Source: Paenibacillus sp. (GTDB lineage Bacteria > Bacillota > Bacilli > Paenibacillales > Paenibacillaceae). Taken from it: a DNA stretch of 64,000 bases. Location: positions 9 through 64,008 of the forward strand of contig DAMDOU010000003.1 of assembly GCA_032083065.1 (NCBI GenBank), given 5' to 3'. Below the pieces are notes generated by a model. The model was given only the letters and a program-made list of their open reading frames with translations. It was not told the origin of the DNA and made no database searches. Made by a program: the position numbers and the translations under genes. Shown one piece after another: positions 5,138 through 49,766 of the stretch (position 1 is the stretch's first letter; each line of letters begins with the position of its first letter).

Positions 5138-5173
5138 AAAACTGCCGATTCCCTAAGGAATCGGCAGTTTTTT
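5138..5173 (+). terminator. Rho-independent terminator of the repeat-protein gene
   Basis: CTGCCGATTCC-ctaa-GGAATCGGCAG followed by TTTTTT. Confidence 0.8.
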
Positions 5174-5250
5174 GCGTGAAAGCCAGCCCCATATACCGGA
5201 GGAGGTAGTCTGGCGCTCGAGAAGAAAGTTAGAATCACCATAGCGGCCAT

Positions 5251-5446
5251 AGCGGACTTTTAGGGTCTTATTTTCTCGAATTCAGACTTGAGCTGATAAA
5301 TAAGGCCTTTTTAGGGTCTTATTTATCTCCATTTCGCTGATAATTGGCCTTTTGTGGCTACATCCGCATAATAAGACCCCGAAAGTCCTCTATTTTCCTT
5401 ACATGCAAGATAATCACTCAAATAACGCCCAAAAAGTCCCTTATTT
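5251..5446. repeat. Intergenic cluster of ~27-nt quasi-palindromic units: two direct, two inverted, plus one degenerate
   Basis: Unit approx AAATAAGGGACTTTTTAGGGTCTTATTT. Copies at 5251-5274 (+), 5298-5324 (+), 5368-5396 (inverted) and 5420-5446 (inverted), with a degenerate copy at 5340-5365. Loop centres are spaced 51 / 72 / 51 bp. Confidence 0.6.
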
Positions 5447-20522: not shown

Positions 20523-20578
20523 GGGCTTCCTACTCCTTTATGTGAATAATAAATGAATCGCTTTTGTTTGAATGGAAA

Positions 20579-20620
20579 GATAATGATAATCATTATCATA
20601 TGCTGTTAATTATCATTATG
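20579..20620. promoter_or_regulatory. Fur box (perfect 19-mer) plus an adjacent weaker site
   Basis: GATAATGATAATCATTATC at 20579-20597 is 19/19 to the classical Fur consensus. It contains the Bacillus 7-1-7 core TGATAATCATTATCA (20584-20598). A second, weaker site TTAATTATCATTATG is at 20606-20620. Confidence 0.75.
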
Positions 20621-28894: not shown

Positions 28895-30391
28895 ATGAAA
28901 TACGTTATAGGGATTGACCTTGGCACAAGCTCGGTAAAAACGGTGCTGGTGAACAAGGAAGGAGAAATTAAAGGGGAAGCTACCGCGGCTTACCCGCTAA
29001 TTCAGGAGCGTCCGGGCTACAGCGAGCAAAATCCGGAGGAATGGGTCAATGGTACGGTAGCCTGCTTGAAGCAACTGCTTCAGGAGAACGGCATTTCGGG
29101 GGAAGATATCGAGGGCGTATCTTACTCGGGACAAATGCACGGCATGGTTTTGCTGGATGAGCAGAATAACGTGTTGCGTAATGCGATTCTGTGGAATGAT
29201 ACGCGCACGACGAAGGAGTGTCGGGAAATCGAGCAGAAGCTCGGCGGCAAGCTGCTCGATATTACGCGTAATGCAGCCCTGGAAGGATTTACGTTGCCGA
29301 AAATCCTGTGGGTACAAAAGCATGAGCCCGAGCTGTTCGCCAAGGCGGCACGCTTTGTGCTGCCGAAGGACTACCTGCGCTACCGGATGACCGGGCGCGT
29401 AGAGATGGAAATCTCCGATGCCGCAGGCACGCTGCTGCTGAACGTTCCGGAAGGAGCTTGGAGCGAGGAAATCGCTCAGGCGTTTGGCCTTCCGGAAGGG
29501 TTCTGCCCGCCGCTGGTCGGCAGCACGGAGCAAACCGGCACGCTGCTGCCGGAATTCGCGCAGCAGTGCGGGCTCTCACCGAACACCCGGGTGTTCGGCG
29601 GCGGCGCGGACAATGCCTGCGGCGCGGTAGGCGCCGGCATTGTCCGTAAGGGCGATGCGCTGTGCAGCATCGGCACGTCCGGCGTTGTCCTCACGTATGA
29701 AGAGGACAAGAACAAGGACTTCGCCGGCAAGGTGCATTTCTTTAACCACGCGCATCCGGGCGCTTTTTACGCCATGGGTGTGACCCTGGCGGCAGGCTAC
29801 TCGCTGAGCTGGTTCAAGGACTCGCTCGCGCCGGAGCTCAGCTTCAATGAAATGCTTGAGCCTGTCGGCTCGTTGCCTCCGGGTGCGGACGGCCTGTTGT
29901 TCACGCCGTATCTGGTCGGCGAACGCACGCCGCATGCGGACAGTGTTATCCGCGGCAGCTTCATCGGCCTGTCCGGCACGCACCGCCGTGAGCATCTCGC
30001 CCGTGCGGTAATGGAAGGCATCACATTCTCGCTGGCTGAATCCGTGGCTTTGTTCCGCGAAGCCGGCATCACGATCGAACGCGTCATCTCCATCGGCGGC
30101 GGCGCCAAGAATCCGGTCTGGCTGCAAATGCAGGCCGACATCTTCGGCACGCCGGTCGTGTCGCTGAAGAACGAGCAAGGCCCGGCGATGGGCTCGGCCA
30201 TGATGGCCGCCGTCGGCTGCGGCTGGTTCGGCAGCCTGAAAGAGTGCGCCGATAAATTTATCGGCTACGGCAAAACCTACGAGCCGATCCCGGCTAACGT
30301 AGAAACTTACGGCCGCCTGTTCAAGCTGTATCAGCAAGTTTACTCCGCAACCCGCTCGCTGAACGAAGGGCTGCAAGAATTCCGCGGCTAA
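28895..30391 (+). CDS. xylB: Xylulokinase (FGGY family)
   Basis: MKYVIGIDLGTSSVKTVL..., QMHG, and GGGAKNPVWLQMQADIFG. The ATG at 28895 is 8 nt after GAAGGGAGAG. Confidence 0.95.
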   Translation: MKYVIGIDLGTSSVKTVLVNKEGEIKGEATAAYPLIQERPGYSEQNPEEWVNGTVACLKQLLQENGISGEDIEGVSYSGQMHGMVLLDEQNNVLRNAILWNDTRTTKECREIEQKLGGKLLDITRNAALEGFTLPKILWVQKHEPELFAKAARFVLPKDYLRYRMTGRVEMEISDAAGTLLLNVPEGAWSEEIAQAFGLPEGFCPPLVGSTEQTGTLLPEFAQQCGLSPNTRVFGGGADNACGAVGAGIVRKGDALCSIGTSGVVLTYEEDKNKDFAGKVHFFNHAHPGAFYAMGVTLAAGYSLSWFKDSLAPELSFNEMLEPVGSLPPGADGLLFTPYLVGERTPHADSVIRGSFIGLSGTHRREHLARAVMEGITFSLAESVALFREAGITIERVISIGGGAKNPVWLQMQADIFGTPVVSLKNEQGPAMGSAMMAAVGCGWFGSLKECADKFIGYGKTYEPIPANVETYGRLFKLYQQVYSATRSLNEGLQEFRG

Positions 30392-30443
30392 TATGGCCAG
30401 GCAGGGTAGTCAGCGTTAAACTAGCTGAATAAAAATATTGCAA

Positions 30444-30486
30444 AAAGCGCGTGATTCTATTTTTGTTGAAGAGAACCACGCGCTTT
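30444..30486. terminator. Hairpin terminator, probably bidirectional (xylB on plus; stronger for the minus-strand hrtBA read-through)
   Basis: AAAGCGCGTG, a 23-nt loop, CACGCGCTTT. Only T3 follows on the plus strand, but T5 follows on the minus strand. Confidence 0.5.
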
Positions 30487-30542
30487 GACGTTTTGAAGCC
30501 AACTAACTAGTCTTGCCTGGGGCCTGGCCACTTTGCCGATAA

Positions 30543-30829
30543 ATTACCTGTATTATCTACAGGTAATTTGCTCGAATCCGGCCATTCCAGATAATTACCT
30601 GTATTACCTACAGTTAATTCTTATCCTTTCCGCCTTTTTCGCTCTAAGCGCCTAAATTAACTGTAGACTTTCCAGCTAAGTTGTTCGAAACAGGCTTACC
30701 GCACGAAATAACTGTAGGTTTTCCAGCTAACTTATGGGGCTAGACTTGGCGAGTTCAACTAACGAGCCTGGCCCCCAGTAGAAGAAGGCCCACTCCTAAG
30801 TTCCGGCCAACTGCACGAATGAGTTACCT
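30543..30829. repeat. 287-bp four-hairpin modular element, copy 1
   Basis: Identical to 30955-31241 except for 2 nt. Modules have loop centres at 30555, 30606, 30668 and 30719. The first is AAATTACCTGTA-ttatc-TACAGGTAATTT. Confidence 0.9.
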
Positions 30830-30954
30830 AACTGCAAGAATGGTTACTTTAACTAACGGGTCTCCAAACCGCGCACATGATGCAAACCCTCCAGTAACTA
30901 GTAACTTCATGCTTTATTGCTAGATACTCGTGGGAGGACGGTCGGAAGAGTTAT

Positions 30955-31241
30955 ATTACCTGTATTTCCTACAGGTAATTTGCTCGAATCCGGCCATTCC
31001 AGATAATTACCTGTATTACCTACAGTTAATTCTTATCCTTTCCGCCTTTTTCGCTCTAAGCGCCTAAATTAACTGTAGACTTTCCAGCTAAGTTGTTCGA
31101 AACAGGCTTACCGCACGAAATAACTGTAGGTTTTCCAGCTAACTTATGGGGCTAGACTTGGCGAGTTCAACTAACGAGCCTGGCCCCCAGTAGAAGAAGG
31201 CCCACTCCTAAGTTCCGGCCAACTGCACGAATGAGTTACCT
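30955..31241. repeat. 287-bp four-hairpin modular element, copy 2
   Basis: Offset of 412 bp from copy 1. The only differences are in the first hairpin loop (tttcc vs ttatc). Ends 3 nt before the hrtA stop codon. Confidence 0.9.
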
Positions 31242-31243
31242 CG

Positions 31244-31981
31244 TCATGCCTCTGACAGCTGGCCGTCCTCAATGTATACAACGCGGTCGCATAGATCGAG
31301 CATGCGCTGGTCATGGGTAACCATGACGGCGGCTTTGCCGCGATGTTTGACCTCGTCGGCCAGCATCTGCACGACGTCGCGGCCGCGCTCGGAATCGAGG
31401 CTGGCGTTCGGCTCGTCCGCGAGGATGATCTCGGGGTCGTTCATCCAGGCGCGGGCGATGGCGGCGCGTTGTCTTTCGCCGCCGGAGAGCGACTCCGGGT
31501 AATGGCGCAGCCGGCGGCCTAGACCGAGTCGTTCGAGCAGCTCGTCGGCTTTCTTCTTGGACTCGCTCTTCGGTTTGCCGGCCAACTCGCCGATCAGCAG
31601 CAGTTGGTCCCGAACGGTTAAGTACGGGATCAAATTCGCGGATTGGAATATGAATCCGATCTTAGCCAGCCGCACATCGTTCAGTTCCGGCCCGGAAAGC
31701 TTGCTGATATCCTGGCCGCTGATCAGAACCCTTCCTTCGGTAGGCGACAGCAGGGCTCCCGCAATGGAGAGGAACGTGCTTTTTCCTGCTCCCGAAGGGC
31801 CGACGACCGCCACGAATTCCCCGGCCTTTACCTCCAGCGATACCTGGTCAAGCACATGGACCGAAGCATCGCCGTCACCATAAACTTTGCTGACTTTGTC
31901 GAGCAGTAGCTTCGTTTCCACGCCTGAGTTCGTGTGTATTCCCAATTTCATATCTCGTTCTTGAATCGTAGTAGTATTCAT
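31244..31981 (-). CDS. hrtA: Heme-efflux ABC transporter ATP-binding protein
   Basis: Walker A GPSGAGKST, signature LSGGERQR, Walker B ILADEP. The start ATG overlaps the hrtB TAA (ATAATG), indicating translational coupling. Confidence 0.85.
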   Translation of the reverse strand: MNTTTIQERDMKLGIHTNSGVETKLLLDKVSKVYGDGDASVHVLDQVSLEVKAGEFVAVVGPSGAGKSTFLSIAGALLSPTEGRVLISGQDISKLSGPELNDVRLAKIGFIFQSANLIPYLTVRDQLLLIGELAGKPKSESKKKADELLERLGLGRRLRHYPESLSGGERQRAAIARAWMNDPEIILADEPNASLDSERGRDVVQMLADEVKHRGKAAVMVTHDQRMLDLCDRVVYIEDGQLSEA

Positions 31982-49377: not shown

Positions 49378-49380
49378 GAC

Positions 49381-49424
49381 GGGATCCCGTAGGATGGGAT
49401 CCCGTAGGATGGGATCCCGTAGGG
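49381..49424. repeat. Tandem 15-mer GGGATCCCGTAGGAT x3
   Basis: Copies at 49381-49395, 49396-49410 and 49411-49424 (the last partial). Each contains the palindrome GGGATCCC. Confidence 0.9.
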
Positions 49425-49467
49425 CCCGGAGCGCCAAACCTGAACCTGTTCCCTGGGCGATTTTCGG

Positions 49468-49655
49468 ATTAACTGTAAAACATACAGTTATTTTTCCAAA
49501 ATCAAGCTGAAAGTTAAAAATAGCTGTAAAAGCTACAGTTAAATTCCCTCCAAATTCCCGTTTCCTCAGGAACAGCTGGAATTAGATGTACCTTTTACAG
49601 TTAAATCTCTTCAACTCGCAATGGGCGAGAAAATAGATGTACTTTTTACAGTTAT
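49468..49655. repeat. Four-hairpin modular element, same family and geometry as 30543-30829
   Basis: TAACTGTA-aaaca-TACAGTTA, GCTGTA-aaagc-TACAG, ATGTA-ccttt-TACAG and ATGTA-ctttt-TACAG. Loop centres at 49480, 49531, 49593 and 49644 give spacing 51/62/51. Confidence 0.7.
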
Positions 49656-49701
49656 TTATCCATTATTTATCCATTATTTACTCGCCGCATGGCCTATCCA
49701 T

Positions 49702-49766
49702 ATCAAGCAATCAAGCAAGCAATCAAACAATCAAACAATCAAGCAATCGAGCATACAACCATACGA
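49702..49766. repeat. Imperfect octamer tandem repeat (ATCAAGCA)n just upstream of the GH130 RBS
   Basis: atcaagca atcaagca (agca) atcaaaca atcaaaca atcaagca atcgagca tacaacca tacgag. It is preceded by about 2.5 copies of an 11-mer (ATTTATCCATT) at about 49654-49682. Confidence 0.8.

Follow-up and report, generated by a model that had tools for sequence, protein, structure and literature searches.

Two copies of a four-site element in the xylB/ATPase gap

We analyzed a 64,000-nucleotide stretch of a Paenibacillus sp. genome (contig DAMDOU010000003.1; hereafter the window), in which the gap between a xylulokinase gene (xylB) and a gene for an ATP-binding cassette (ABC) ATPase contains, one after the other, two copies of a ~190-bp DNA element that is non-coding, two-fold symmetric and dispersed in the Paenibacillaceae. 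The left border gene scores 621 bits with the NCBIfam XylB equivalog, whose cut-off is 380, in agreement with a preliminary description of the window made from the sequence alone. The right border gene, there called hrtA, is an ABC ATPase gene, although that name is only plausible, the models matched being of the generic MacB/LolD/DevA type; from this gene onward the order is FtsX permease, histidine kinase and response regulator. Two direct repeats of 290 nt each lie in the gap at an offset of 412 and differ at three positions (30542, 30555 and 30556). Within the 287-nt frame used in the preliminary description there are two differences, both in the loop of site 1, and the longer frame adds the third. 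The second repeat ends 2 nt from the ATPase stop codon, and the gap has no open reading frame (ORF) of 60 aa or more, as described. The repeat is real, but the unit described as 287 bp has two parts: a dispersed core of ~190 bp, here termed the family-A element, and a locus-specific tail of ~95 nt that is common only to the orthologous loci of Paenibacillus vini and Fontibacillus phaseoli. The 21-nt sub-repeat reported for the tail is present (30809-30829 and 30830-30850).

Table 1. Positions of the repeats, elements and bordering genes in the window
Feature	Position	Strand	Description
Xylulokinase gene (xylB)	28895-30391	+	Left border of the gap
Hairpin between xylB and the array	30444-30486		18-nt arms, 89% complementary
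First arm of the tandem duplication	30540-30829	+	Family-A core plus ~95-nt locus-specific tail (30733-30829)
Family-A core, copy A	30542-30732		27-bp sites 30542-30568, 30593-30619, 30655-30681, 30706-30732
Second arm of the tandem duplication	30952-31241	+	99% identical to the first arm
Family-A core, copy B	30954-31144		27-bp sites 30954-30980, 31005-31031, 31067-31093, 31118-31144
ABC ATPase gene	31244-31981	-	Right border of the gap
Family-A core, third copy, diverged	49467-49657		Spacing 51/62/51; in a mannoside operon, between its GH125 and GH130 genes
Family-B element	5247-5446		Four sites AAATAAGGAC-N7-GTCCTTATTT, spacing 51/71/51; just past a terminator at ~5141-5175

The core is built on a repeated palindrome. 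With at most one mismatch allowed, CTGTA-N5-TACAG occurs 12 times in the window against 0.53 expected, a number reached by none of 100 shuffled sequences. The occurrences form three sets of four, at 30548/30599/30661/30712 and 30960/31011/31073/31124 in the gap and at 49473/49524/49586/49637 in the mannoside operon, and all three are spaced 51/62/51 bp; both the four-module layout and the count of eight palindromes in the gap and four near 49468-49655 stand as first described. The three sets align without gaps and are conserved in the palindromes only. Read from the inner to the outer half, the 27-bp site consensus is AATTARCTGTA-GGWWW-TACAGYTAATT, and the sites are oriented two plus two, mirror-wise, with sites 1 and 3 and sites 2 and 4 each 113 bp apart.

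Other genomes were scanned with a two-site query, taking one genome per species and allowing spacings of 46-56 bp; loci and contigs compared with the window carry the labels L001-L152. The scan gave 33 matches at 27 loci, 29 of them at exactly 51 bp, and those in intergenic DNA came from Paenibacillaceae-type genomes only, namely Paenibacillus vini, P. allorhizoplanae, P. qinlingensis, P. contaminans, P. vietnamensis, P. whitsoniae, F. phaseoli, Fontibacillus sp. BL9 and a Bacillales metagenome-assembled genome (MAG). Although only two sites were queried, the remaining two were usually present too. Complete four-site elements number 24 in at least 10 Paenibacillaceae genomes, 19 of them spaced at exactly 51/62/51 bp, and spacings of 52, 63 or 72 bp are rare. 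P. vini has at least 9 loci that fit the strict two-site pattern. When elements are compared pairwise, their sites are 72-75% identical, as against 31-36% for the spacers and 27% for the flanks. The suggestion of a dispersed family is thus borne out, the module spacing being conserved in other genomes, and the refuting outcome named in the preliminary description, a spacing not kept among genomic copies, did not occur.

Matches in a Cohnella MAG (L122, L131 and probably L136) and in a member of the Marinilabiliaceae (L129) were set aside as 51- or 54-bp coding repeats within ORFs. The Cohnella 51-bp tandem repeats with CTGTA-N5-TACAG correspond to 17-aa protein repeats (ORFs in L122 and L131; L136 has the same sequence), and the period that they share with the element is probably a coincidence. 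A BLAST comparison of the repeat unit with plasmid and phage collections found no match, and a metagenome scan gave three matches, none useful. Viral contigs gave 120 matches, nearly all at other spacings (operator-like triples ~22 bp apart or coding repeats) and none related. Many phage contigs (for example L003 2529-2588 and L005 10508-10567) have three ACTGTA-N5-TACAGT-like palindromes ~22 bp apart in an operator-like arrangement; these triples may hint at a type of repressor that reads such a half-site, their spacing being unrelated to that of the element.

The gap and the mannoside operon contain further features outside the core. Between xylB and the array, the minus-strand terminator proposed earlier is present as a hairpin, with an equivalent in P. 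vini, and is likely a bidirectional terminator; a site scan of the gap for promoter- and terminator-like sites made no call, at this hairpin included. Between the two copies, a 62-nt block (30837-30899) is conserved above its surroundings in P. vini (L141, two copies) and F. phaseoli (L125). Its minus strand has a ribosome-binding site and a 9-codon micro-ORF, MCAVWRPVS* (30878 to 30849), which reads M(C/R/H)AVW(R/S)PVS* across relatives and in which one codon pair is TCA versus AGT, both serine. The block may encode a micro-peptide or serve as a leader or protein-binding site, and is a property of the xylB/ATPase locus outside the dispersed element. The third element is flanked (49380-49425 and 49655-49745) by three copies of a 15-bp tandem repeat, GGGATCCCGTAGGAT; an 11-bp repeat, TTATTTATCCA, present in 2.3 copies, begins inside the outer arm of its site 4, and a CAATCAAGCAA-type low-complexity stretch also flanks it in the same operon gap, which measures 36-90 bp in relatives. 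Elsewhere in the window, a divergent 473-bp gap contains GATAATGATAATCATTATC (20576-20600), which closely matches the Fur-box consensus.

The element probably acts as phased double-stranded DNA

Variation among the copies points to an element that acts as double-stranded DNA rather than as a hairpin, and the reading as RNA or as a 3′ untranslated region (3′UTR) is not supported. At the variable stem position of the half-site, TTARCTGTA, the pairs observed are AT (31), GT (21), AC (21) and GC (6). The two halves vary independently, and A-C mismatches, not tolerated in hairpins of RNA or single-stranded DNA, are as frequent as G-T; the covariation that the preliminary description had proposed to look for is absent at this position. 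The sites are also polar. G or GG follows CTGTA in 63 of the 88 inner half-sites, the outer half-sites having only A or T, so that the first two sites are the mirror image of the last two, which gives the element as a whole a two-fold symmetry.

The spacers, despite their low identity, share a periodic composition. The A/T fraction per column, taken over 16 independent copies, oscillates with a period of 10.3 bp, and this is the dominant spectral peak; for the spacer columns alone, none of 2000 permutations matched the observed power at this period. The phase is the same in 16/16 copies and in register with the site centres. With this period, the distances of 51, 62 and 72 bp correspond to 5, 6 and 7 helical turns. 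All sites and A/T patches are accordingly predicted, from sequence, to lie on one face of the DNA, a signature of curved or wrapped DNA.

Four hairpins per copy had been proposed. Sites 1 and 2 do form hairpins of 11-12 bp, but sites 3 and 4 are poor (CTGTA...TCCAG, with a T-C mismatch). The core folds better as single-stranded DNA than shuffled sequences do (z = -3.2). Spacer 1 matches the reverse complement of spacer 3 no better within elements (0.32) than between elements (0.33), and the two are therefore not complementary in the manner of the long hairpin of a REPIN (repetitive extragenic palindrome, REP, doublet forming hairpins). A complementarity of the loops of sites 2 and 3 or 1 and 4 was rejected after inspection by eye. 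At the gathering score, Rfam gave no match in the window and 18 loci, and matches at E-values up to 10 were at chance level only (CRISPR-DR11 at 20 bits against a gathering score of 45). The array is also not a CRISPR array (clusters of short palindromic repeats at regular intervals), the sites being fixed at four with two of them inverted. The earlier finding of no match to a known family, and of no ORF or transposase, is upheld in these comparisons. The proposal of a four-hairpin RNA forming a long hrtBA 3′UTR is not supported, given the independence of the stem halves, the two-fold symmetry, the 10.3-bp A/T phasing and the location of most other copies past a neighbouring gene's terminator or between unrelated genes.

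Sister families share the architecture with other palindromes

The same layout is found with different palindromes. In addition to the family-B element of the window, family B is present in L148 (5655-5856) at a spacing of 51/72/51, with a GC-rich hairpin in its centre. In Paenibacillus sp. A14 (L152 41-1160), a GH38-GH125 gap of 1084 bp contains three further elements side by side: one of four sites with the core TAACGGC...GCCGTTA and a spacing of 50/60/50, another of four sites with the core AACGGGA...TCCCGTT and a spacing of 51/62/51, and a partial, family-B-like element. The general module consists of an A/T-rich outer arm (AAATAA/AATTAA), a family-specific core of 4-5 nt, a centre of 5-7 nt and the mirror image, and the sister families likewise show the 10.3-bp A/T phasing. 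Such elements occupy 3 of the 9 gaps longer than 200 bp in the window. The existence of sister families with other palindromes points to co-evolving pairs of proteins and sites.

Two side observations concern these loci. An identical 30-bp direct repeat in L152, AAATAGACAGCACCATGTCAGGTTTGATAC (641-670 and 838-867), brackets one of the elements and may be a mark of insertion or duplication. A public 142-aa gene call in L148 (5494-5922), with no Pfam match, lies wholly within the repeat-filled xylB/ATPase gap and is probably spurious.

The elements lie in intergenic DNA near terminators

All family-A copies are intergenic, with approximately 6-7 in convergent gaps, 14 in co-directional gaps and 1 in a divergent gap. 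Many lie directly beyond an intrinsic terminator, including the likely one of xylB in the window, and in P. vini family-A sites are found 25-30 bp past the 5S rRNA terminators of at least two rRNA operons (L144 9-270 and L121 1-277). The neighbouring genes are unrelated housekeeping genes (PFK, MatE, EcsB, SulP, LacI, GH130, aminotransferase and SDR). Pfam scans of 30 neighbours revealed no consistent partner gene, and clustering of the neighbouring ORFs yielded no families beyond those of histidine kinases, response regulators and ABC proteins, all of them generic and at chance level. A transcription-factor operator array was rejected on the grounds that only about one gap is divergent, that the neighbours are functionally unrelated and that the xylB/ATPase gap has no promoter-like site. 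The idea that the elements mark contig ends was dropped, since the locus blocks begin at arbitrary positions.

Gain, loss and local amplification

Comparison of syntenic sites shows insertion polymorphism by gain, loss or replacement. The orthologous xylB/ATPase gap of P. vini has three tandem copies with a period of 449/437 bp, whereas a single copy is retained after xylB in F. phaseoli and P. puldeungensis, where the downstream gene is different, and P. barengoltzii has no element after xylB, its gap there measuring 147 bp. The closest relative found, L148 (XylB 93% identical), has family B instead of family A in the xylB/ATPase gap. The GH125-GH130 gap that holds the third element in the window is 408 bp long, compared with 36 or 90 bp in relatives without the element, and an element at this position was seen in the window lineage only. 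In the P. barengoltzii group, a variant element lies in the neighbouring GH38-GH125 gap, which is 38 bp long in the window.

The copies have also been amplified in place. Those of P. vini are 79-90% identical to each other and 72-77% identical to the window copies, which are 99% identical to each other. Since identity within species exceeds that between species, the arrays reflect lineage-specific tandem duplication or gene conversion, in keeping with the earlier suggestion that the two near-identical copies arose by recent duplication or conversion. Tandem arrays have periods of 265, 287, 385, 412 and 449 bp.

Two pairs of same-genome paralogues, L127/L137 and L130/L135, share 73-75% identity over ~200-210 bp and have unrelated flanks. 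Their alignment spans the four-site unit plus at most ~20 bp, and the inverted ends of the element are the outer half-sites. The element has thus been dispersed as a discrete unit of about 195 bp. Half-elements flanking a gene were considered and discarded, the sole case being due to the insertion of IS3 into the loop of a site. In that case, P. vini L146 (6290-7580), an IS3-family element (orfA and an rve-domain orfB) sits exactly in the loop of a family-A site with a 3-bp target duplication, GTT; the site belongs to a long tandem array with a period of 265 bp and a fifth site in each unit.

Interpretation and alternatives

We give about an even chance to the view that the element is a non-autonomous mobile element, similar to a transposable element of the miniature inverted-repeat kind (MITE) or bacterial interspersed mosaic element (BIME) and of a type that works by nucleoprotein assembly. 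In this model, one putative sequence-specific protein dimer would bind each palindrome, all of them on one face of an easily bent DNA, and the whole element would fold into a compact symmetric complex of four dimers. We propose that the complex serves in cis as the 'ends' assembly of a MITE whose arms each have two binding sites, one inner and one outer, as in inverted repeat/direct repeat (IR/DR) transposons, and the built-in bendability may help both ends of a very short element to meet. The element would spread by transposition and settle in terminator-proximal intergenic DNA, where it could be amplified locally by tandem duplication and then homogenized by gene conversion. We favour mobility because of the discrete unit boundaries, the gain, loss and replacement at syntenic sites, the coexisting and clustered families, the avoidance of promoter gaps, the tandem amplification and the bendability.

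Several observations weigh against mobility. At the paralogue boundaries, no target-site duplication is visible and no sharp terminal nucleotides can be defined; the filled and empty sites available are too diverged to align. No autonomous partner was found, the only transposase among 30 neighbouring genes being that of an unrelated IS3 element, and flanks of 8 kb contain no parent insertion sequence (IS) or transposase with the same ends. Near-identical copies at different loci were not seen among the loci compared, which gives no indication of recent bursts. For the ends used by DDE transposases, palindromic binding sites are unusual. A Tc1/IS630-style reading, with TA|CAGT ends, was rejected, as CAG is missing from the other families and the outer half-sites are conserved. 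In the one orthologous pair tested, identity is 83% in the sites and 70% in the spacers, so that conservation does not exceed that of the third codon positions of xylB, also 83%. The element downstream of xylB persists across Paenibacillus and Fontibacillus, which fits a host function as well as a mobile element.

Such a host function is a possible explanation, though not a probable one. The phased palindromes would then bind, with high affinity, a conserved Paenibacillaceae protein that wraps or loops ~190 bp at the 3′ ends of transcription units, and this chromatin or topology element would be kept for the host and would not be mobile; by analogy with gyrase and IHF at BIMEs, the protein might be a nucleoid-associated protein, a topoisomerase partner or a roadblock. 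This account is consistent with the conservation of the sites together with their helical phasing, the positions beyond terminators and within convergent gaps, where positive supercoils build up, the retention downstream of xylB in three genera or species, and the presence of the same site sequence in distant Paenibacillus and Fontibacillus species. It is harder to reconcile with the gain, loss and replacement at syntenic sites, including the switch to a family with a different palindrome at the xylB locus of the closest relative, with the dispersal as a discrete ~195-bp unit and with the several coexisting specificity families, each of which would call for its own cognate protein. A bolder proposal, which we think unlikely, is that the element represents a new class of genome-architecture site, in which ~190 bp of phased, curved DNA with four palindromes would be wrapped or looped by protein at the ends of transcription units. 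Several co-evolving protein-site pairs (families A, B, C and D) would then coexist in one genome, and the sites would be a Firmicute counterpart of the BIME-gyrase/IHF sites with dedicated binding proteins.

Explanations that rely on folded single strands fare worse. It is improbable that the palindromes act as single-stranded DNA hairpins mobilized, as for REPs and BIMEs, by an HUH (Y1) transposase like the REP-associated tyrosine transposases (RAYTs). The extragenic palindromic units of ~27 bp with fixed spacing and central inversion, the GTAG in 63/88 inner half-sites, the palindromy kept between families with different cores and the better-than-shuffled folding noted above would fit such a mechanism. 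Against this, stem positions do not covary within the family, with mid-stem A-C as common as G-T; GTAG covers the upper end of the stem and the first base of the loop rather than the stem foot; the arms lack REPIN-like complementarity; the A/T phasing has no role in a hairpin model; and a Y1 transposase is encoded by 0 of the 30 neighbouring genes scanned. The outer site pairs are moreover head-to-tail, an arrangement that is rare in REPs (Di Nocera 2013, PMC3733652). We regard as very improbable that the array is a structured RNA, either a small RNA or a long 3′UTR of the ABC-transporter operon, whose hairpins would stabilize the transcript or bind a protein. Both in the window and in P. vini the array does have the ATPase stop codon on one side and the sole hairpin terminator nearby on the other, and two of the four sites can form hairpins; however, no Rfam match or covariation was found, the two-fold symmetry favours neither strand, sites 3 and 4 fold poorly, copies elsewhere lie beyond terminators (those of 5S rRNA included) in every orientation relative to their neighbours, and the A/T phasing indicates double-stranded DNA. 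Finally, the essentially unconserved inter-site sequence would suit a duplicated spacer without function in neutral drift, with the resemblance across loci due to chance or low complexity. This reading, to which we attach next to no credence, is refuted by the 12 sites found where 0.53 were expected and by 24 elements with conserved sites, spacing and phase across genera.

Comparison with known systems

The layout, symmetry and phasing of the element provide a concrete structural model, in which four dimers would sit on one face of a bent DNA. Among the long intergenic gaps of these genomes, a large share is taken up by elements of this kind, which risk being mistaken for small RNAs, terminators, operators or small ORFs, as with the 142-aa gene call in L148. 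If mobile, they would reveal a new transposition system, and if kept by the host, a new chromosome-organizing site. Interspersed palindromic repeats are well charted in Proteobacteria (REP, BIME, REPIN and Correia elements) and poorly in Firmicutes. Rfam, the plasmid and phage collections and the literature searched on Paenibacillus repeats and on the site sequence gave no description of the present family.

REPs and BIMEs are short extragenic palindromes grouped with set spacings of 20-100 bp (Nunvar 2010, PMC2817692; Di Nocera 2013, PMC3733652), and the latter survey makes no mention of Firmicutes or Paenibacillus. The element resembles them in its clustered extragenic palindromes at gene 3′ ends and in convergent gaps, its several families per genome, its tandem amplification and its lineage specificity. 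It differs in lacking a GTAG or CGTC tag at the stem foot and hairpin covariation, in its head-to-tail outer pairs, in its fixed set of four two-fold symmetric sites with 10.3-bp A/T phasing, and in that the 30 neighbouring genes scanned include no RAYT transposase. Among MITEs with several binding sites, the relevant comparators are the IR/DR-type ends of Tc1 and Sleeping Beauty and the Correia elements with their central IHF bend. With these the element shares a length of ~190 bp, the absence of coding capacity, a dispersal as discrete units, a two-fold symmetry with one outer and one inner site per arm, insertion polymorphism and bendability. Unlike in these systems, each site is itself palindromic, the copies are old, with spacers diverged to saturation, and no target-site duplication, sharp termini or parent IS were found. 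REPINs, as Bertels and Rainey reportedly described in 2011, are inverted REP doublets that form one long hairpin. They are similar in having short, conserved, inverted palindromes at a fixed distance with less conserved sequence between them, whereas the element has four sites instead of two and arms that are not complementary outside the sites.

Looped and wrapped repressor complexes offer a further parallel. In the GalR-HU repressosome the operators are 113 bp apart, and Lrp wraps DNA around an octamer. The element likewise has several putative dimer sites on one DNA face at whole helical turns, including distances of 113 bp; unlike repressor complexes, it occurs in tens of unrelated non-promoter gaps and not at promoters. 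In its working, the element is most like BIMEs or multi-site MITEs, but it lacks defining features of REPs, REPINs, CRISPR arrays and operator arrays. It looks like a previously undescribed kind of interspersed, putatively protein-binding DNA element, whose new feature is the fixed four-site, helically phased architecture.

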